Source: a virus. From it: 38,287 nt of DNA. Under the pieces are notes generated by a model that had not been told where the DNA came from, made no database searches, and worked only from the letters and a program-made list of their open reading frames with translations. Location: the UHGV virus genome UHGV-1369766; one strand, 5' to 3'. The position numbers and the translations under genes are program-made. Positions 3,131 through 18,193 of this stretch are shown here, one piece after another; position 1 is the first letter of the stretch, and the number at the start of each line of letters is the position of its first letter.

Positions 3131-3416
3131 TACTGATAGCGCCATAGCGTGAGCGGTAATTACGCTGGCGCGGGTCAATTTCAGGGAAGTGGGTATATGT
3201 GGCTTTGCGGAATGGTCGGATTGATGTCTGGTAAATTCGCTCGCGTTCTTCTTTCTCTGCAAGCCATATACAATGGCGAAATTCCTTTTCCTCTTTCGTT
3301 TCCTGCGGTAGCGACATTATCCGGTTGTAGTTTTTCCTGAATTTATCCAGCACCTCCGATACGGAATTGCCGGAACAGCGGCGCGCGTCATCCGCACCAT
3401 ACAGAGGCGCTGGCAT
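3123..3416 (-). CDS. Hypothetical protein
   Basis: 97 aa ORF; strong RBS (AGGAGAAAATC-ATG). Confidence 0.5.
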
Positions 3417-3429
3417 GATTTTCTCCTGA

Positions 3430-3897
3430 TTAAATTGCGTGAATAGCGTGACGAGGGAAGGGGAGAGTTACTGGTTCCTCGTCTGGATATATTGGCTTGT
3501 TGTGCTTGTGCCATTCAACATGACATGCTTTGCATAGCCACATCACTTCAAGAGGTTTACTGTAATCGCAGTGGTGAGCGTCTGGGTGGCATTTGCTGTT
3601 GCATTTCTGACACGTTGTTGGTCTACATAACTTACCAGATTTAATTGCTCGTTTGACTGACCATCTTGCTTGCTGTCTTTGGCGATGAGATTCCAGATAG
3701 TTCTCTCTTGCTTTGATTAATGCAACCTTGCCCTTTTCGCTTTTGTTATATTTTTTACAAGCATTATTATGTATTAGCTTTCCTATTCCTTTTTGATATT
3801 CAGTTACTCGTTTTTTAGTGCATTCCTTGCACACCTTATTTCTAGGATAAAAACCATTAGGTGGTTTATTCTCTCCACATTTTTTGCAAGTGATCAT
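3430..3897 (-). CDS. Zinc-ribbon / HNH-like endonuclease-type protein
   Basis: N-terminal CxxC...CxxC zinc ribbon, C-terminal ...DAHHCDYSKP...WLCKACHVEWH resembling an HNH motif; ATG with GGGAGAA RBS; the 5' half of the gene is visibly AT-rich relative to flanks. Confidence 0.6.
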   Translation of the reverse strand: MITCKKCGENKPPNGFYPRNKVCKECTKKRVTEYQKGIGKLIHNNACKKYNKSEKGKVALIKARENYLESHRQRQQARWSVKRAIKSGKLCRPTTCQKCNSKCHPDAHHCDYSKPLEVMWLCKACHVEWHKHNKPIYPDEEPVTLPFPRHAIHAI

Positions 3898-5552: not shown

Positions 5553-6521
5553 TTAGTAGGTTATTTTTGTTGCGAATACTTCGCCTTTTACGATGGCTGT
5601 TATGATATTTTTAGCAACATCTTCTGATGCGCCAACCTTGATAAGGTCAGCAAGTATTTTGTTATTTACTTCTTTCCGGTGAGCTTTATCCTTTGCTCTA
5701 CGCTCTTCTTCGTCCTTGATTCTTTTTTCTTCTGCTATTCTGGCTTGCTCTTTTACTTCAGCCTCGCGCCGGATTCGTTCAGCCTCCTCCTGTGCTTTTC
5801 GGCGTTCTGCTTCAATTGCCGCCTGCTTTTCTCTTTCAGCTCGTTCTGCTGCCTCTTTTGCTTCGCGCTGTGCTCGTTGCTCGGCTTCAATGCGTTCACG
5901 CTCTGCACGTTCCGCTGCGGCCTTAGCTTCTGCTTCTCGCCTTGCTGCTGCTTCAATTTCGGCTTTTGCCTTTGCTTCGGCTTCAGCTCTGGCTTTCTCT
6001 TCAGCTTCTCTTTTTAAGCGTTCTTCATGCTCTCGCTTTTCCTGCTCAGCTTTGAGTCTTGCCTCTTCTCTTTGGCGGTCAAATTCGCGATCCATCAAAA
6101 TCGCTATTTCATGGTCAGACTCAATTTGCTTTGCGAGAGCTTCAGCTGCTGCCTTAGCTTCTTCTTCGGCTTTAATCCGCGCCTGTTCTTCCTCATAATC
6201 AGTAAGAGGCTGGCGCGCCTTGGCTTTCAGTTCATCAAGGCGATCACGCACTGTCTTGCGGTTGGCATCAATTAGCTTTGGAATTTCCTTAAGTTCAGCA
6301 ACAAGGTCTTTGCCAAGACCATCGAGATATGTTTTCGTCTGCGCAACTTTATACGCCAGAGAAGCGATCTCCTTTCTGCCCTTTGCCGTTGTGATATCAG
6401 GCACAAAGGACATAACTTCACGTTCAACCTTTTGGAGAATTTCTTCAATCTGGTCGGCAGACTGAAATACAGTCATTGCATTTGCTTTTTCAATAACAAC
6501 TAAATCTGTTACTTCACTCAT
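5553..6521 (-). CDS. Hypothetical protein with long E/R/K/A-rich predicted single alpha-helix or coiled-coil segment
   Basis: 322 aa from the ATG at 6519-6521 (GGAGGAT RBS); ~110 aa of charged repeats (AEEKARAEAEAKAKAEIEAAARRE...); position analogous to the ea10/ral/sieB accessory segment of lambda. Confidence 0.65.
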   Translation of the reverse strand: MSEVTDLVVIEKANAMTVFQSADQIEEILQKVEREVMSFVPDITTAKGRKEIASLAYKVAQTKTYLDGLGKDLVAELKEIPKLIDANRKTVRDRLDELKAKARQPLTDYEEEQARIKAEEEAKAAAEALAKQIESDHEIAILMDREFDRQREEARLKAEQEKREHEERLKREAEEKARAEAEAKAKAEIEAAARREAEAKAAAERAERERIEAEQRAQREAKEAAERAEREKQAAIEAERRKAQEEAERIRREAEVKEQARIAEEKRIKDEEERRAKDKAHRKEVNNKILADLIKVGASEDVAKNIITAIVKGEVFATKITY

Positions 6522-6533
6522 ATATCCTCCATC

Positions 6534-6561
6534 AAAAAAAACTGCCCTCACACTGGAGGGC
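6534..6561 (-). terminator. Intrinsic terminator in the PL operon (tL1-like)
   Basis: Minus-strand GCCCTC-CAGTGT-GAGGGC hairpin followed by AG and eight T; sits between the 207-aa and 322-aa genes. Confidence 0.75.
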
Positions 6562-6695
6562 AAAGAAGATTTCCAATAATCAGAACAAGTCGGCTCCTGT
6601 TTAGTTACGAGCGACATTGCTCCGTGTATTCACTCGTTGGAATGAATACACAGTGCAGTGTTTATTCCGTTGTTTATGCCAAAAATAAAGGCCGA

Positions 6696-7319
6696 CTATG
6701 CGGACTCGGAAGGAAGTCCAATCATCTTATTCAAATCTTCTACCCGTAAAGCAGGAAGTGCTGTACTTGCTTTGTCTGCTTCTTTTGGTAGCAATTCTTT
6801 GCTTTCAGGCCAAACTTCAATAAGTCGCTTAACTGTTGTGACTGAGTTCAAAGCAGCCCATACATTTGATTCGATATCCTTTTTCTTGGTTTCAAGTTTT
6901 TGTTGCAATGCGCAGATTTCATCAAACCTTTTTGTTATTTCGTGTTCTGCATCAAACATGCATTTATCTTTGGTTGGAGTAGGGAGCAATATATCTTCGC
7001 CGTTGCCGTCTTTCCCATATGAATGCCATCCAACCCTTCTGCCAGATACAGTCAGATAAATTGAAGTAGAACGAACATCGTATGAGTAAAATGAACATCC
7101 CATCTTTTCAAGTTCTTCACTTATAGCTACTAACCTGGATGATAACTGATCCACTTCCTCAGTTTTCTTTTTACCGCCAAACGCAATAACTCTGGCGTCA
7201 AGTGCAAGCTGGTTCTTTAACTTTGTTACTTCTTCAAGTTCAGTGAAAACCCCAGACTTAATTAAAGCGTTACGAGCGATTTTCTCTTTCATTCTCGTAG
7301 TTAAGCGGATTGATGACAT
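6696..7319 (-). CDS. Hypothetical protein immediately downstream of N
   Basis: 207 aa from the ATG at 7317-7319 (GAGGA RBS); 11 nt after the N stop and upstream of the tL1-like terminator; no family recognised. Confidence 0.6.
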   Translation of the reverse strand: MSSIRLTTRMKEKIARNALIKSGVFTELEEVTKLKNQLALDARVIAFGGKKKTEEVDQLSSRLVAISEELEKMGCSFYSYDVRSTSIYLTVSGRRVGWHSYGKDGNGEDILLPTPTKDKCMFDAEHEITKRFDEICALQQKLETKKKDIESNVWAALNSVTTVKRLIEVWPESKELLPKEADKASTALPALRVEDLNKMIGLPSESA

Positions 7320-7330
7320 ATTAATTCCTC

Positions 7331-7630
7331 TCAAATAAGTGGTTTGCTGCCTAATTTTATTTTCTGGCGACCAACACAAGTCACACCCATTTCACTGCGT
7401 GGCTTGCGGTAGTAAATACGGTTCTGTTTACGCTCGACTTCTTCTGCCTTCTTGCAGCGAAGGCTTCCGAGTGATGCTGCTTTGTCTGCTCTGACGCAAC
7501 CAGAGAGCTTTAGCGCAATTTTTCGCGCCAGTCGCTGCTCTTGCATTGCCTGTTCACGTTGAGCCTGTCTGCGTGCTCTGCGGCGATTTCTGGCGTTATC
7601 GTCAGCCAGATATGTAATGACTACTGTCAT
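7331..7630 (-). CDS. N: Antitermination protein N
   Basis: 99 aa; arginine-rich motif NARNRRRARRQAQ near the N-terminus; C-terminus ...YYRKPRSEMGVTCVGRQKIKLGSKPLI resembles my recollection of lambda N (...YSKPGERGITCSGRQKIKGKSIPLI); GGAGG RBS. Confidence 0.85.
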   Translation of the reverse strand: MTVVITYLADDNARNRRRARRQAQREQAMQEQRLARKIALKLSGCVRADKAASLGSLRCKKAEEVERKQNRIYYRKPRSEMGVTCVGRQKIKLGSKPLI

Positions 7631-7942
7631 GTTGACCTCCGATGAAACAACTTTGGAATTTTTTTATTACAAAGTTGTTTCCTTCCCCGCCAATTAGACG
7701 GGGATGGAAGAGCATTTATGAGCCTTCATGGACTCTGCTCGATCAGTTCTATTTAATTAATCTCTCAATTGAATGTAAGTATTCACATAAATCCTCCTAC
7801 CTCTTGTGCAGCTTTCTTGAATATGGTGGCGGCTGCATAACGCCTATGGAATTGACTTTGGCGGTGACGCGCCGGGTGCTTATCTTCCGGTTGCCGTCGT
7901 GCAGCTGCACTTCACGTCACCCCAAAGCCAACTACTCTTTGG

Positions 7943-7985
7943 TTCCCGCATTTCGGCGGGACAATCCCATCAATGTTAAAGAGCA
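7943..7985 (-). promoter_or_regulatory. nutL (boxA TGCTCTTTAA plus boxB hairpin CCCGC-CGAAAT-GCGGG)
   Basis: Minus-strand reading; the boxB is a 16-nt exact copy of the nutR boxB; ~40-80 nt downstream of the PL candidate. Confidence 0.65.
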
Positions 7986-8030
7986 TGCCAATCTGTTCCG
8001 TTTGGCTTCCAGCGTCCTGCTGATGGCTAA

Positions 8031-8059
8031 AGAATACTGTAGGTATTTTATTGTGTAAA
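8031..8059 (-). promoter_or_regulatory. PL-like early leftward promoter (-35 TTTACA, 17-bp spacer, -10 TATTCT)
   Basis: Read on the minus strand; both hexamers overlap operator repeats; same -10 hexamer and geometry as the PR candidate. Confidence 0.5.
8033..8047. promoter_or_regulatory. OL operator site (AATAC-TGTAG-GTATT)
   Basis: Perfect inverted half-sites with 5-bp spacer; one of six related sites. Confidence 0.6.
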
Positions 8060-8072
8060 TACCCAAGGTATT
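8058..8072. promoter_or_regulatory. OL operator site (AATAC-CCAAG-GTATT)
   Basis: Perfect inverted half-sites, 25 bp centre-to-centre from the neighbouring site. Confidence 0.6.
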
Positions 8073-8102
8073 TATTTTTGATGAAATAATGATAAGCAAA
8101 TG

Positions 8103-8117
8103 AATACAAAGGATATT
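8103..8117. promoter_or_regulatory. OL operator-like site (AATAC-AAAGG-ATATT, one mismatch)
   Basis: Imperfect copy of the same motif. Confidence 0.4.
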
Positions 8118-8203
8118 TATTTTTTCGGTGTCTGCTTGTTCAGTGCTTTTTATGCGGGATATGTGAAGTGGATCCCGATAGCTATTGCTGCCGGGATTAT
8201 AGG

Positions 8204-8572
8204 TTAGTCAGCGAAGGTTAAGACGAGAATTACCTTAATGATGTCTGCTACAACAGACACGGCCATAGATAAACCAAAGACGATCCAAGCCACAGTGATG
8301 TCTTCACTACCATCGTATAGAGTTCCGTAATCACTGGTGTAAGGCGTAAATGTCGCGCCTTGATACAATAGGTATAAGCTTGATCCATAGAGGATAAATG
8401 CAGATATCCCTTGTATTGCTATGATCACCAGAATCATGAAACGAGCTGATCTATGCGCCCAAGCCTGGCTTATTTTTTCTGATAGAGATTTCGCAATAAA
8501 AGCATGCGCTAAGCCGTAAATTGTCGAGATTGCCAACATCCCAAAAAAGCTTGCTATAGCGGTTCCAACCAT
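8204..8572 (-). CDS. Small three-helix membrane protein downstream of cI (rex-position gene)
   Basis: 122 aa from the ATG at 8570-8572 (AAGGGG RBS, 17 nt after the cI stop); three hydrophobic segments; same strand and operon position as rexAB in lambda. Confidence 0.6.
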   Translation of the reverse strand: MVGTAIASFFGMLAISTIYGLAHAFIAKSLSEKISQAWAHRSARFMILVIIAIQGISAFILYGSSLYLLYQGATFTPYTSDYGTLYDGSEDITVAWIVFGLSMAVSVVADIIKVILVLTFAD

Positions 8573-8589
8573 AATCGCCCCTTGCGTGA

Positions 8590-9306
8590 TCAAACCAGCC
8601 TTAGTTTTGTCTCAATTGCAACGCCTATAATCTTGCAGTTTCCATTGATTGGCACGAGAGGCCATGCAGGATTAAGTCCCTTGAGGTATTTATTTCCGCC
8701 GTCGATTATCAGCTTCTTGAATGTTGCTTCGTTAGAGTCAGAAAGTTTTGCTATGACCAAGCTGCCGTTGATCGCCTCCCTTCCGGTATCGAAAAGAACG
8801 AATGTTCCCTCTGGAATGCTTAACCCAACCGGTGCCGTCATTGAATCACCTTCCACTTTAAGCCAGAACGCATTACCTTGAATATGCGCGTCAGACTCAA
8901 GCCAAACATCTATGTCTTTAATGGTGTATGGTTCGCATGCTTCACACCACGAGCCAGCCTGGATACTGCTTAACACCGGATACCTCTTTCCTGCTCTGTA
9001 TTCCCCTGCATACCTTACGTTGGCATCGCTCTTAAGGCTTTCTGCCTGTTCTGCAACCTTGGCAGCAATTGACTGGCTAAAATCAGCAATTGAGACTTGC
9101 AACAGTCGTGCAAAACCAGATGCAACCTCAACGTTTAGCGCGTTTCTGCCATTAAGATAATGCCCTACCGCTCCTTGGGTGATACCCAGTTCATCAGCGA
9201 TTGAGTATTGGGTTATTCCCAATTCTTTCTTTTTTGACTCATACAAAGCCTTAAGCCGCTTAGCGTCTTCGAGCTGTTCTGTCGTCAGTGATTTTTTATT
9301 TTCCAT
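8590..9306 (-). CDS. cI: CI-type prophage repressor (HTH plus LexA-like S24 peptidase domain)
   Basis: 238 aa; N-terminal HTH (QYSIADELGITQGAVGHYLNG), C-terminal autocleavage-type domain (...VEGDSM...KL...); divergent to cro across an operator-rich intergenic region. Confidence 0.9.
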   Translation of the reverse strand: MENKKSLTTEQLEDAKRLKALYESKKKELGITQYSIADELGITQGAVGHYLNGRNALNVEVASGFARLLQVSIADFSQSIAAKVAEQAESLKSDANVRYAGEYRAGKRYPVLSSIQAGSWCEACEPYTIKDIDVWLESDAHIQGNAFWLKVEGDSMTAPVGLSIPEGTFVLFDTGREAINGSLVIAKLSDSNEATFKKLIIDGGNKYLKGLNPAWPLVPINGNCKIIGVAIETKLRLV

Positions 9307-9317
9307 AGCTTAATTCT

Positions 9318-9332
9318 AATAGCTAAGGTACT
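9318..9332. promoter_or_regulatory. OR3-like operator (AATAG-CTAAG-GTACT, degenerate)
   Basis: Weaker copy, 24 bp from the next site, nearest cI. Confidence 0.35.
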
Positions 9333-9341
9333 TAAACTAAA

Positions 9342-9356
9342 AATACCCTGAGTATT
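9342..9356. promoter_or_regulatory. OR2-like operator (AATAC-CCTGA-GTATT)
   Basis: Perfect half-sites; overlaps the -35 of the PR candidate. Confidence 0.6.
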
Positions 9357-9383
9357 GATTGCTTTGAATACCTGTAGTATTCT
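9355..9383 (+). promoter_or_regulatory. PR-like early rightward promoter (-35 TTGATT, 17-bp spacer, -10 TATTCT)
   Basis: Hexamers overlap the OR2 and OR1 sites; ~30 nt upstream of cro. Confidence 0.5.
9367..9381. promoter_or_regulatory. OR1-like operator (GAATAC-CTGTA-GTATTC)
   Basis: Perfect 17-bp palindrome including flanks; overlaps the -10 of the PR candidate. Confidence 0.65.
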
Positions 9384-9412
9384 TTGTTCATGGTTAATAA
9401 CGGAGAGTGCAT

Positions 9413-9607
9413 ATGATTCGAATGACACTTGCCGATTACGCCAAAATCCATGGACAGGCTAAAGCAGCCAGTGACTTTGGTGTAATCCAGTGCGCTATCA
9501 GCAAGGCCATTCTGGCAGGTCGTAACATTATGGTTACGGTAAAGCCTGATGGCAGTGTGATTGGAGAGGAAGTTCGTCCTTTCCCAAGCAACAAGAAAAA
9601 CAAATAG
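9413..9607 (+). CDS. cro: Cro repressor
   Basis: [33 protein letters not shown]...FPSNKK closely parallels my recollection of lambda Cro; GGAGAG RBS before the ATG at 9413 (track ORF starts 6 nt earlier at GTG). Confidence 0.85.
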
Positions 9608-9613
9608 TAACAC

Positions 9614-9658
9614 CGCTCTTTAACAGTCATGGTCATCATTCCCGCCGAAATGCGGGAA
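9614..9658 (+). promoter_or_regulatory. nutR (boxA CGCTCTTTAA plus boxB hairpin)
   Basis: boxA matches the lambdoid consensus CGCTCTT(T)A; followed 15 nt later by the TTCCCGCCGAAATGCGGGAA hairpin; lies between cro and cII. Confidence 0.7.
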
Positions 9659-9715
9659 TACAACGCGCATAAGTTGATGCGCATAACTTCTTATTAGTTA
9701 AGGAAATACTTACAT

Positions 9716-9994
9716 ATGCAACTTACAAGTACTCGCAAGAAAGCGAATGCAATTACAAGCAACATCCTGAATCGAATTGCTGTACGTGGTCAGCGAAAGG
9801 TTGCCGACGCGTTAGGGATTAATGAATCGCAAATTTCGCGATGGAAAGACAGCTTCATCCCAAAAATGGGAATGCTTCTGGCTGTTCTTGAATGGGGTGT
9901 TGAAGACGAGGAGTTGGCGGAACTGGCTAAGAAAGTAGCCAGAATGCTGACAAAAGAAAAAGCCCCGAAGAACGGCGAATTCTTCGAGGCCTGA
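9716..9994 (+). CDS. cII: CII transcriptional activator
   Basis: ...SQISRWK...IPKMGMLLAVLEWGV... matches the conserved lambda CII core as recalled; AAGGAA RBS. Confidence 0.85.
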   Translation: MQLTSTRKKANAITSNILNRIAVRGQRKVADALGINESQISRWKDSFIPKMGMLLAVLEWGVEDEELAELAKKVARMLTKEKAPKNGEFFEA

Positions 9995-10028
9995 TGTAGA
10001 AAGACTGGATCAATCCACAGGAGTAATT

Positions 10029-10190
10029 ATGACAAAACGTCGTAAGAAATACCAGGAAAAAGAAGAGATTCGACACCCTGATTCACCTGAGGGATTAGTG
10101 GTAGCCGCAGCAAATAACAGGGCGTTCGCAGAGCGCCTTGTTGGTGTTTACAGACTAGCCAAAGCAGGAGTGAAACATGGGCGTCGTTAA
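10029..10190 (+). CDS. Hypothetical small basic protein (53 aa)
   Basis: ATG with AGGAG RBS; not in the ORF track (<60 aa); overlaps the annotated start of the following gene. Confidence 0.3.
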   Translation: MTKRRKKYQEKEEIRHPDSPEGLVVAAANNRAFAERLVGVYRLAKAGVKHGRR

Positions 10191-11067
10191 GTTAGCTGAT
10201 TACAGGCATAACCCTGTACAACATCAGGAGGCATCCAGTATGGGGTATGTCTCTATACACCGCCAGTTTATGGACAGCAGGCTCTATAAGGACTCTCAGG
10301 CAGTACATCTTTGGCTTCACTTAATCCTCAAGGCTAATCACGAATCTACTGTCGTCAATACGGATATCGGGCCGATAACTGTTGATCGCGGTCAGATGAT
10401 AACTGGACGCCCGTCGCTGGTCAGAGAAACATTCATCCCCGACAACAAAGTTCGGAGCTTATTACGGACTTTTGAGTCGAAAGGGATGCTTAATATTTGC
10501 TCGATGGGGAAGAAATTTAGCCTGTTTACAATCGTTAAATATGACGATTTTCAGGCAAAAAATTGTCCAACGGTTGTCCAACGGTTGTCCAACGCAAACA
10601 CCAGTAATGGCGCGGCTCTCAGCGGAGATTGTCCAACGGTTGTCCAACGGTTGTCCATAAACAATAATATAAATAATATCTCTAATACTGACGTATTAGA
10701 GAGTGCCACAGCAGACAAAAAGTCTGACAAGAAAAAACCTTCCGTCAGCTGTCAGGATGTTGTCGATGCTTACCACGAAATCCTTCCTGAAGCGCCAAGA
10801 ATCCGCGCACTGAATGACAAGCGTAAAAACCAGATCCGAACGTTCTGGCGCAAAGCCGGAGTGATAACCCGCCAGCTTGACGGGCATGGGTTCACGATGC
10901 AGGACTGGAGAAATTATTTGAGCTACGTAGGCGAAAATTGCCGATGGATGTTCGAAGAACGCCCAAACCATCAACGCGGAACCGTCTGGCACAAAAAGGG
11001 ATTTGATTTCCTGCTTAACGACAATACCTACCTGAAAGTTCGTGAGGGTGAACACGATGACCGATAA
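10177..11067 (+). CDS. Replication initiator (lambda O functional analogue) with embedded origin iterons
   Basis: 296 aa ORF; the 11-bp iterons at 10563-10659 lie inside the coding sequence (encoding the repeated CPTVVQRLS peptide), as in lambdoid ori-in-O arrangements; stop overlaps the helicase start. An alternative start at ATG 10239 (AGGAGG RBS) is possible. Confidence 0.75.
   Translation: MGVVKLADYRHNPVQHQEASSMGYVSIHRQFMDSRLYKDSQAVHLWLHLILKANHESTVVNTDIGPITVDRGQMITGRPSLVRETFIPDNKVRSLLRTFESKGMLNICSMGKKFSLFTIVKYDDFQAKNCPTVVQRLSNANTSNGAALSGDCPTVVQRLSINNNINNISNTDVLESATADKKSDKKKPSVSCQDVVDAYHEILPEAPRIRALNDKRKNQIRTFWRKAGVITRQLDGHGFTMQDWRNYLSYVGENCRWMFEERPNHQRGTVWHKKGFDFLLNDNTYLKVREGEHDDR
10563..10700. 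repeat. Origin of replication: six 11-bp iterons (TTGTCCAACGG) in two triplets plus an AT-rich tract
   Basis: Direct repeats at 10563-10594 and 10629-10659, then aaacaataatataaataatatct; embedded in the initiator gene. Confidence 0.8.
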
Positions 11068-12521: not shown

Positions 12522-12553
12522 AGGCCTGCTGGTAATCGCAGGCCTTTTTATTT
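12522..12553 (+). terminator. Intrinsic terminator after the helicase gene (tR2-like position)
   Basis: AGGCCTGC-tggtaatc-GCAGGCCT hairpin followed by TTTTTATTT. Confidence 0.6.
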
Positions 12554-17409: not shown

Positions 17410-17733
17410 ATGAAGATGCCTGAAAAACATGACCTGTTAGCCGCCATTCTCGCGGCAAAGGAACAAGGCATCGGGGCAATCCTTGCGTTTGCAATGGCGT
17501 ACCTTCGCGGCAGATATAATGGCGGTGCGTTTACAAAAACACTAATCGACGCAACGATGTGCGCCATTATCGCCTGGTTCATTCGTGACCTTCTCGACTT
17601 CGCCGGACTAAGTAGCAATCTCGCTTATATAACGAGCGTGTTCATCGGCTACATCGGTACTGACTCGATTGGTTCGCTTATCAAACGCTTCGCTGCTAAA
17701 AAAGCCGGAGTAGAAGATGGTGGAAATCAATAA
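17410..17733 (+). CDS. S: Holin (lambda S type, dual-start motif MKMPEKH)
   Basis: 107 aa, near-identical to lambda S as recalled; Met-Lys-Met dual start typical of the S107/S105 holin/antiholin pair. Confidence 0.9.
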
Positions 17734-18193
17734 TCAACGTAAGGCGTTCCTCGATATGCTGGCGTGGTCAGAGGGGACTGATAACGGACGACAGAAAACC
17801 AGAAATCATGGTTATGACGTCATTGTAGGCGGAGAGCTATTCACTGATTACTCCGATCACCCTCGCAAACTTGTCACGCTAAACCCAAAACTCAAATCAA
17901 CAGCAGCCGGACGTTACCAGCTTCTTTCCCGTTGGTGGGATGCCTATCGTAAGCAACTTGGCCTGAAAGACTTCTCTCCGAAAAGTCAGGACGCTGTGGC
18001 ATTGCAGCAGATTAAAGAGCGTGGCGCTTTACCGATGATTGATCGCGGTGATATTCGTCAGGCAATTGACCGTTGCAGCAATATCTGGGCTTCACTTCCG
18101 GGCGCTGGTTATGGTCAGTTCGAGCATAAGGCTGACAGCCTGATTGCAAAATTCAAAGAAGCAGGCGGAACGGTCAGAGAGATTGAGGTATGA
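17717..18193 (+). CDS. R: Endolysin (lambda R-type lytic transglycosylase)
   Basis: 158 aa, near-identical to lambda R as recalled. Confidence 0.9.

Follow-up and report, generated by a model that had tools for sequence, protein, structure and literature searches.

The early regulatory region of the window, by which we mean the whole 38,287-nt stretch of viral DNA analysed, is ordered pL-nutL-N on its leftward side and pR-cro-nutR-cII on its rightward side according to gene calls and Pfam matches, and this order matches the positions of nut sites in lambdoid phages (Table 1). The putative nutL follows pL at a distance of about 40 nt and comes before N, whose ATG has a GGAGG Shine-Dalgarno sequence 7 nt in front of it. 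The putative nutR starts 6 nt past the cro stop codon and ahead of cII, and the cI repressor gene belongs to the immunity cassette between the two sites. The tR1 terminator following nutR is presumed to be Rho-dependent since a hairpin with a U-run is absent.

Table 1. Early regulatory features of the window, from the leftward to the rightward terminator-like hairpin
Feature	Coordinates	Strand	Details
Intrinsic-terminator-like hairpin	6542..6563	-	U8 tail; past N and the Nmad5 gene on the leftward transcript; consensus scan only
N	7331..7630	-	antiterminator gene, 99 aa
nutL	7944..7985	-	boxA TGCTCTTTAA 7985->7976; 14-nt spacer 7975->7962; boxB 7961->7944
nutL boxB	7961->7944	-	UCCCGC-CGAAAU-GCGGGA; loop 7955->7950
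pL	8024..8059	-	0 mismatches to HK620 annotated feature; promoter-like match in scan
OL1	8032-8048		0 mismatches to HK620 feature; operator repeat family in repeat search
OL2	8057-8073		as OL1
OL3	8079-8095		as OL1
cI repressor	8590..9306	-	HTH_3 + Peptidase_S24; HK620 cI annotation
OR3	9317-9333		0 mismatches to HK620 feature
OR2	9341-9357		as OR3
pR	9355..9390	+	0 mismatches to HK620 annotated feature
OR1	9366-9382		as OR3
cro	9413..9607	+	Pfam Cro, E 3.6e-26; directly upstream of nutR
nutR	9614..9659	+	boxA CGCTCTTTAA 9614-9623; 14-nt spacer 9624-9637; boxB 9638-9659
nutR boxB	9638-9659	+	AUUCCCGC-CGAAAU-GCGGGAAU; loop 9646-9651
tR1 start	9659..9665	+	mapped from HK620 annotation, 0 mismatches
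cII	9716..9994	+	Pfam Phage_CII, E 1.8e-42; first gene past nutR and tR1
Intrinsic-terminator-like hairpin	12522..12545	+	past P (DnaB-like) gene on the rightward transcript; consensus scan only

The window holds two exact copies of the 18-mer TCCCGCCGAAATGCGGGA, one at 7944-7961 on the minus strand and one at 9640-9657 on the plus strand, and no further match was found over the 38,287 nt when up to three mismatches were allowed. The number expected by chance is 0.03, and none of 100 shuffled sequences held two or more matches. A repeat search returned these copies as an inverted repeat of 19 nt with 100% complementarity (7943-7961/9640-9658), and the boxA-boxB spacers show partial conservation between the sites as well (inverted repeat I3, 18 nt, 89% complementary). 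On folding, a 6-nt loop was obtained at both sites, on a stem of 8 bp in nutR (-12.5 kcal/mol, z -3.65) and of 6 bp in nutL (-10.5 kcal/mol, z -2.95), and an rrn-type boxA precedes each copy of boxB by 14-16 nt. These results bear out the first-pass annotation, which had described a hairpin repeated in 19 of 20 positions with flanks, its 6-nt loop and a boxA-like decamer ahead of each copy on its own strand. A third exact copy of the boxA decamer (18012-18021, minus strand) was considered as a nut site and rejected; it runs antisense within an ORF (17717-18193, plus strand), is not accompanied by boxB and is taken as a chance occurrence. Searches of Rfam, which holds no nut or boxB model, gave no relevant family for positions 7000-11000 at E up to 10 or for the whole window at gathering thresholds.

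All regulatory annotations of phage HK620 (AF335538), including nutL (7753-7794) and nutR (9423-9468), can be placed on the window with one mismatch or none. Each 42-46-nt site differs from its HK620 counterpart by a single base; in nutL this base immediately precedes boxA, in nutR it belongs to the spacer, and boxB is identical. The operators and promoters are identical too, the sites occupy the same places with respect to pL, N, cro and cII, and residues 1-64 of the N protein are 98% identical to HK620 N. The earlier naming of the repeats as nutL and nutR thus agrees with their position, boxA, hairpin and neighbouring N gene, and with HK620 features labelled 'putative N-utilization' that lie within one base. 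The repeats are very probably the nutL and nutR of an HK620-type lambdoid phage, in which boxB and the arginine-rich motif (ARM) of N probably make up a recognition pair unlike the prototypes of lambda, P22 and phage 21. Nut sites of this kind are already known, being annotated as putative nutL and nutR in the GenBank record of HK620, and the finding, correct but ordinary, is unsurprising to a specialist on lambdoid phages; the gain in annotation is that the early map of the window is fixed as pL-nutL-N and pR-cro-nutR-tR1-cII. The accessible literature on HK620 N and boxB specificity yielded no report of experimental N binding or antitermination at an HK620-type boxB.

The window also departs from HK620, in that it carries an insertion of about 206 bp in the leader of N and other genes downstream of N. 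Its N protein, with 99 aa, has a phage-21-type C-terminal part ending in GRQKIKLGSKPLI, whereas HK620 N has 90 aa and ends in YAAGYRKSKQLTAR, like P22 gp24. An N-terminal ARM is present in this cognate N encoded by the same phage, spanning residues ~11-27 (DDNARNRRRARRQAQREQ) with the core NARNRRRARR, and the match to the Pfam family N_peptide is weak (E 8e-4, 20.3 bits, below the gathering cutoff of 27.9 bits). The lambda-like C-terminus proposed from the first reading stands in so far as its final ~38 residues can be aligned to the lambda N of 6GOV, a structure of the antitermination complex, but the C-terminal part is more precisely of the phage 21 type, with 98% identity to phage 21 N over residues 37-99; the two proteins have the same length up to LARKIALKLSGC.

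Among 199 exact copies of the boxB 16-mer in public viral contigs, boxA lies 14-18 nt upstream in 192. The remaining seven are outside nut contexts, all without boxA and in unrelated sequence, and three of them look like terminators; these exceptions were not counted as refuting the restriction of the hairpin to nut contexts. Downstream of the leftward, nutL-type copies comes an N with the N-terminus MTVVITYLADDNARNRRRARRQAQREQ and a NARNRRR ARM in 87/87 evaluable cases, and downstream of the rightward, nutR-type copies a cII-like gene in 86/86. This N-terminus is found joined to five or more different C-terminal halves. When loci were chosen by the N protein and not by boxB, a CGAAAU-type boxB was present upstream of N in 76 of the 78 evaluable, and both nutL and nutR were of this type in 79 of 87 N-selected loci; the other eight comprise a locus with a phage-21-type N (L180), contigs that end before the partner site, the rearranged loci L150, L188 and L207, and L187. 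About 7-9 unrelated repressor types, including lambda-cI-like and P22-c2-like ones, are found between nut sites that both keep the loop, so that linkage to N does not by itself account for the conservation of nutR. A profile scan of species-representative genomes with the N-terminal part gave only four loci of little diversity, among which those of Pantoea and Phytobacter were informative.

The CGAAAU loop, judged from its sequence, is best read as a putative GNRA tetraloop (GAAA) on a non-canonical C·U closing mismatch. Loop variation is confined to Y-G-N-A-A-U, the natural variants UGAAAU and CGUAAU keeping G-N-A-A, and five of the eight stem pairs are changed on both sides in the alignment of relatives. 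Stem cells were paired in 88% of cases compared to at most 62% with the partner slid, in an alignment made up mostly of close relatives and prefiltered for at least five contiguous pairs beside the loop, so that the pairing of the inner pairs is inflated. A short hairpin with a GNRA-like loop, as is characteristic of nut sites, is thereby maintained in the relatives, the GNRA fold being its probable form. The hexaloop C[UAAC]C of phage 21 folds much like a tetraloop, with a non-canonical C-C pair closing it (PMC12550061), and we propose that the boxB described here may share the architecture of this loop and of the P22 nutR loop C[GACAA]C.

Comparison with the prototypes places the pair near to, but outside, each of their classes. 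Phage 21, for which an NMR structure of N/boxB exists (PDB 1NYB), shares the nut layout, with a GCUCUUUAAC boxA, a similar spacer (ACAUYGAYGG), a stem of 6-8 bp and a 6-nt loop. Its class is defined by a CUAACC hexaloop and the ARM TAKSRYKARRAELIAERR, whereas the window has CGAAAU, and NARNRRRARRQAQREQ where phage 21 has TAKSRYKARRAELIAE. P22 gp24, whose boxB carries a GACAA pentaloop (PDB 1A4T), resembles the window N in its N-terminus (MTV(V)ITY...) and in the ARM pattern NA[RK]xRRx[AE]RR, and the P22 nutR boxB (ACCGC-C-GACAA-C-GCGGU) has almost the same stem and a flanking pyrimidine mismatch. However, the extruded C at the third position of GACAA is absent here, leaving a plain GAAA, and the window ARM differs from that of the P22 class (NAKTRRHERRRKLAIER), having neither the His nor the hydrophobic KLAIER segment. 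Lambda belongs to the same mechanism class with the same gene order; the ARM core RRR[AE]RR is alike, and the leader downstream of boxB (CAAAG...GGCUUUGGGGUG) is homologous. Unlike the window, with its rrn-type boxA and hexaloop, lambda has the boxA CGCUCUUA and a boxB with a 5-bp GCCCU stem and a GAAAA or GAAGA pentaloop with an extruded base, together with the ARM QTRRRERRAEKQAQW, and Trp18 of lambda N has no counterpart in the window N. H-19B N, cited as similar in the HK620 record, was rejected as a model for the site since its ARM differs (RSRRRER).

The CGAAAU-loop boxB is strictly linked to the ARM type NARNRRRARR, whatever the C-terminal half of N or the immunity cassette. The N proteins of phages 21 and PA28 have the same middle and C-terminal parts with the ARM TAKSRYKARR, and their loops are CUAACC and CUAACA. 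In a Phytobacter prophage the same N-terminal frame carries the ARM NSKNRYRARR, and the loops are CUGACA and CUAACA. The distinct N specificity that the first-pass annotation had suggested from a boxB unlike that of lambda is in this way supported comparatively, short of proof, and alignment with ARMs of known specificity shows that the window ARM differs from those of lambda, P22 and phage 21. A distinct specificity of the HK620-type pair thus appears well supported by co-variation.

One may go further and suggest, tentatively and with doubt slightly outweighing conviction, that the ARM NARNRRRARRQAQREQ and the Y-GNAA-U hexaloop form a fourth mode of recognition, functionally orthogonal and structurally uncharacterised, in which a GNRA tetraloop without an extruded base would sit on a pyrimidine-pyrimidine mismatch. 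The Phytobacter prophage, with R17Y, other changes and phage-21-like loops, would then mark a natural path for switching between the phage 21 and HK620 classes. Both the GNRA fold and the orthogonality to other N proteins are what we infer from these comparisons, and cross-recognition of this boxB by other N proteins may occur because the ARM core RRRARR resembles RRRERR of lambda and GAAA is a GNRA loop.

An alternative that we regard as unlikely is that these are genuine nut sites of no separate class, their GAAA-loop boxB being read interchangeably by lambda-like and P22-like N proteins and the association of loop and ARM reflecting descent and linkage. The closeness of the ARM core to the corresponding RRRERR of lambda and RRHERR of P22 agrees with this, as does a boxB nearly that of P22 nutR (CCGCC-GA(C)AA-C/U-GCGG), and nutL is only 150-350 nt from the ARM-coding region, a distance at which linkage alone could explain the association. 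Cocozaki et al. are said to have reported in 2008 that lambda N and P22 N overlap in what they require of boxB, which would favour the same explanation. However, nutR is cut off from N by much-swapped immunity cassettes and yet the CGAAAU-type loop is always kept across the ~7-9 repressor types, loop classes are never mixed within a locus, and ARM changes including R17Y within the same N-terminal frame coincide with phage-21-type loops at both nut sites.

The same pair of ~45-nt elements flanks many different immunity cassettes, and in two contigs (L188 and L110) breakpoints fall inside boxB, so that the repeat might be thought to act mainly as DNA, either as boundary homology for recombination in cassette swaps or as a protein-binding palindrome, and not as an RNA element. 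We find this very improbable. Compensatory changes in the stem, together with a loop that always keeps G-N-A-A, indicate that selection acts on an RNA hairpin, which in the viral contigs is always oriented to follow boxA on the transcribed strand, and the layout of the elements agrees with that of the nut sites in lambda, P22 and phage 21. A role in recombination homology would be compatible with nut function without replacing it. The idea that the early operons begin with intrinsic terminators or attenuators formed by these hairpins is scarcely credible and was rejected, since, although the hairpins are GC-rich (-10.5 to -12.5 kcal/mol) and a T-run follows the three unrelated 16-mer occurrences in other viral contigs, no U-run follows either hairpin of the window (the next bases are AAUACAACG and AACCAAAGAG), a terminator scan flagged neither and boxA precedes 192/199 copies.

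The data offer a clean natural case of modular co-evolution, in which shuffling has affected the immunity cassette, the flanking genes and the remainder of N, but an ARM of ~25 residues has stayed with its 6-nt RNA loop. Should the pair be orthogonal to those of lambda, P22 and phage 21, synthetic biology would gain a fourth small peptide-RNA tethering pair, which would also be a useful case of how an ARM peptide reads GNRA-like loops.

In the mechanism proposed for these sites, transcripts from pL and pR would carry the rrn-consensus boxA (GCUCUUUAAC) and, ~14-16 nt on, the boxB hairpin with its C-GAAA-U hexaloop. NusB/NusE would be loaded on boxA, NusA and NusG would join, and RNA polymerase would thereby be turned termination-resistant; the binding of N, the involvement of Nus factors and antitermination at the sites are steps that we infer. 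On the rightward side the modified polymerase would pass tR1 into cII-O-P and through the terminator after P, and on the leftward side it would pass the terminator beyond N. The two intrinsic-terminator-like hairpins of Table 1, one on each transcript, are candidate targets of N antitermination.

The region around the nut sites is a lambdoid immunity region according to gene calls and domain and homology searches, and megablast gave 96-99% identity across most of 7300-10100 to HK620, HK140, mEpX2, HZ41 and related phages. The HK620 record (AF335538) carries the features 'nutL; putative N-utilization leftward' and 'nutR; putative N-utilization rightward', which map with one mismatch each onto the two sites that the first-pass annotation had identified as nutL and nutR, and this identification is right. 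The HK620 pL, pR, OL1-3, OR1-3, pRE and tR1 marks map with 0 mismatches, and both boxA elements are annotated in the mEpX2 record. Mapping of the HK620 features places nutL about 40 nt downstream of pL and the start of nutR 6 nt after the cro stop codon. The finding is thus already known, since the HK620 annotation of these sites is many years old.

Features of the nut sites and the surrounding immunity region
Feature	Position	Strand	Remark
Terminator-like hairpin with U-tail	6542-6563	-	leftward transcript, downstream of nutL
Nmad5 gene	6696-7379	-	PF18757, E 1.3e-71
N	7331-7630	-	
nutL	7944-7985	-	HK620 feature
nutL boxA decamer	7985->7976	-	TGCTCTTTAA
Small membrane-protein ORF	8204-8593	-	
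cI	8590-9306	-	HTH_3 and Peptidase_S24 domains
cro	9413-9607	+	
nutR	9614-9659	+	HK620 feature
nutR boxA decamer	9614-9623	+	CGCTCTTTAA
cII	9716-9994	+	
O- and P-like replication genes	after cII		
Terminator-like hairpin with U-tail	12522-12545	+	rightward transcript, downstream of nutR

An exact search of the 38,287-nt window located TCCCGCCGAAATGCGGGA at 9640-9657 (+) and 7944-7961 (-), and no third match was found there with up to 3 mismatches allowed (chance expectation 0.03). The boxB pair forms a 19-nt perfect inverted repeat, and a second inverted repeat of 18 nt, 89% complementary (7967-7984 / 9615-9632), spans boxA and the early spacer. The hairpin shared on opposite strands and the boxA-like decamer preceding each copy on its own strand were thereby recovered as first described. 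RNA folding likewise returned a hairpin with a 6-nt loop at both sites, with an 8-bp stem at nutR (-12.5 kcal/mol, z -3.65) and a 6-bp stem with the same loop at nutL (-10.5 kcal/mol, z -2.95), and no U-run after either hairpin was found in the window sequence or by terminator scan. A third exact CGCTCTTTAA at 18012-18021 (-) was rejected as a nut site, being antisense within ORF 17717-18193 (+) and followed by no boxB-type hairpin; it is most likely due to chance.

Searching IMG/VR viral contigs for the exact 16-mer CCCGCCGAAATGCGGG returned at least 199 occurrences at no fewer than 120 loci. Among the matches listed, GCTCTT[TA]A ends 14-18 nt upstream of 192 of 199 copies, whereas 7 lie in unrelated sequence without boxA (a T-run follows 3 of these). 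Two copies on one listed contig invariably diverge, at a distance of 1.1-3.0 kb. An ORF with the arginine-rich motif (ARM) N-A-[RK]-N-R-R-R follows all 87 listed leftward-type copies that have 700 nt or more of sequence downstream, and a cII-like gene follows all 86 evaluable rightward-type copies listed.

In a second set of loci, chosen via the N protein and not via boxB, a CGAAAU boxB lies upstream of N in 76 of the 78 evaluable loci, the exceptions being rearranged upstream of N. Both nutL and nutR are of the CGAAAU type in 79 of 87 loci; the remaining 8 comprise one locus with a phage-21-type N (L180), loci cut by the contig end, rearranged loci and one left out of inspection (L187). Roughly 7-9 unrelated repressor types are found between the nut sites, including lambda-cI-like (L151) and P22-c2-like (29 loci). 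That the nutR loop equals the nutL loop despite repeated exchange of this cassette argues for a functional coupling of nutR to N and against mere linkage. In single-match loci of sufficient length the partner site is present as well, its CGAAAU loop borne by a variant stem, and no locus mixing loop classes was found among those compared.

The nutL-nutR spacings (loci L130-L209 and others) cluster at about 1.09, 1.2-1.3, 1.63, 1.68, 1.9, 2.2 and 2.8-2.9 kb, and the nut sites may double as homology for immunity-cassette exchange. Rearrangement breakpoints fall inside boxB in L188 (~160) and L110 (nutR), leaving half of the hairpin, and L150 and L207 have unrelated sequence at the expected nutL place beside the N gene; these four are probably decayed prophages.

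Other ARM and boxB classes are represented by phage 21 (DE3 record; ARM TAKSRYKARRAELIAERR, boxB UCUCAAC-CUAACC-GUUGAGA at nutL and UCACCU-CUAACC-GGGUGA at nutR), PA28 (same ARM, phage-21-type loops CUAACC and CUAACA), lambda (QTRRRERRAEKQAQW, nutL GCCCU-GAAGA-AGGGC) and P22 (NAKTRRHERRRKLAIER, nutL GCGCU-GACAA-AGCGC, nutR ACCGC-CGACAAC-GCGGU); the H-19B ARM is RSRRRER (PMC3526286). In a Phytobacter ursingii prophage (L128, ~3318-3800 and ~2038), N has the HK620-family N-terminal frame MTVVITILASDN... with ARM NSKNRYRARRAAKREQ (NSKNRYRARR), and nutL retains the HK620-type spacer, yet the boxB loops are phage-21-like (CUGACA at nutL, CUAACA at nutR). Loop class thus follows the ARM even in an otherwise conserved context, and this N/boxB pair has the look of a natural intermediate linking the HK620 class with that of phage 21.

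Divergent boxB members from Cronobacter, Pantoea, metagenomes and E. coli keep the loop and alter the stem in compensating pairs (AUCUCCGC/GCGGAGAU, AUCUCCAC/GUGGAGAU, UUCCGC/GCGGAA). In 18 distinct hairpins, picked for at least 5 pairs beside the loop and including many close relatives, so that inner pairs are biased to pairing, changes occurred on both sides in 5 of 8 stem pairs, paired cells reached 88% against at most 62% in slid registers, and 0 of 500 shuffles attained the observed co-variation score. The only loop variants found, UGAAAU and CGUAAU, give the pattern Y-G-N-A-A-U. In the phage 21 hexaloop CUAACC, UAAC adopts a GNRA-like fold with a non-canonical C-C pair at its flanks, and the P22 GACAA loop takes a GNRA fold with C looped out (PMC12550061). 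The boxB of the window is almost P22 nutR minus the extruded C, and the loop pattern and homology, with the analogy to phage 21 and P22, suggest that the loop is a genuine GNRA tetraloop, GAAA or GUAA, on a closing C·U or U·U mismatch. In a nutR subtype, CUCCC[AG]C-CGAAAU-G[UC][CA]GGAG, common to seven loci (L017, L051, L059, L098, L105, L116, L129), the third pair counted from the loop is a conserved mismatch, and the second shows a compensatory change from G-C to A-U.

Among viral-contig loci, the N genes that follow nutL encode an almost constant N-terminus (M[TA]VVITYLADDNARNRRRARRQAQREQ), whereas the remainder of the protein is of at least 5 unrelated or mosaic C-terminal types. The N of the window is HK620-like over residues 1-64, phage 21 N is 98% identical to it over residues 37-99, and lambda N in the antitermination complex structure 6GOV aligns with its last 38 residues. 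HK620 N has the same ARM, but on a P22-like C-terminus. Homologues with a phage-21/lambda-type C-terminus fall, by protein search, into two discrete N-terminal classes, that of the window and that of phage 21. A distinct N specificity of the HK620-type ARM/boxB pair is predicted, with good support from co-variation. Cross-recognition of boxB between N classes is nevertheless possible, since the ARM core RRRARR is close to RRRERR of lambda N and the loop is a GNRA sequence. A search of the accessible literature found no biochemical study of this pair.

Relative to HK620 and mEpX2, the N leader holds an insertion of ~206 bp (7632-7838, N-sense on the - strand) that separates the conserved leader from the ribosome-binding site of N. 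The CUS-3 counterpart, 99% identical, bears the annotation 'bsq5 boundary sequence', and the HK140 one is 72% identical. Within the insertion are a CCCCGUCUAAUUGGCGGGG hairpin and, at 7644-7681, a 16-bp stem abutting the N Shine-Dalgarno, and the entire leader folds with z = -5.9. The insertion may serve as a control element, acting through RNase III or on translation. At nutL only (7935-7985, -), boxA GCUCUUU can pair with AAAGAGU directly 3' of boxB in a longer helix enclosing boxB, which may be an alternative structure or belong to the leader helix that follows. Loci from Cronobacter, metagenomes and Phytobacter retain the CAAAGAG motif, including those with a different boxB. Directly downstream of N, the gene for nucleotide modification associated domain 5 (Nmad5) occupies the position of hkaQ and hkaP in HK620. 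ORF 5553-6617 (-) encodes 354 aa that include an extended, strongly charged repeat region rich in E/K/A/R, and because the leftward terminator-like hairpin falls within its 5' end, the true start probably lies downstream of this hairpin.
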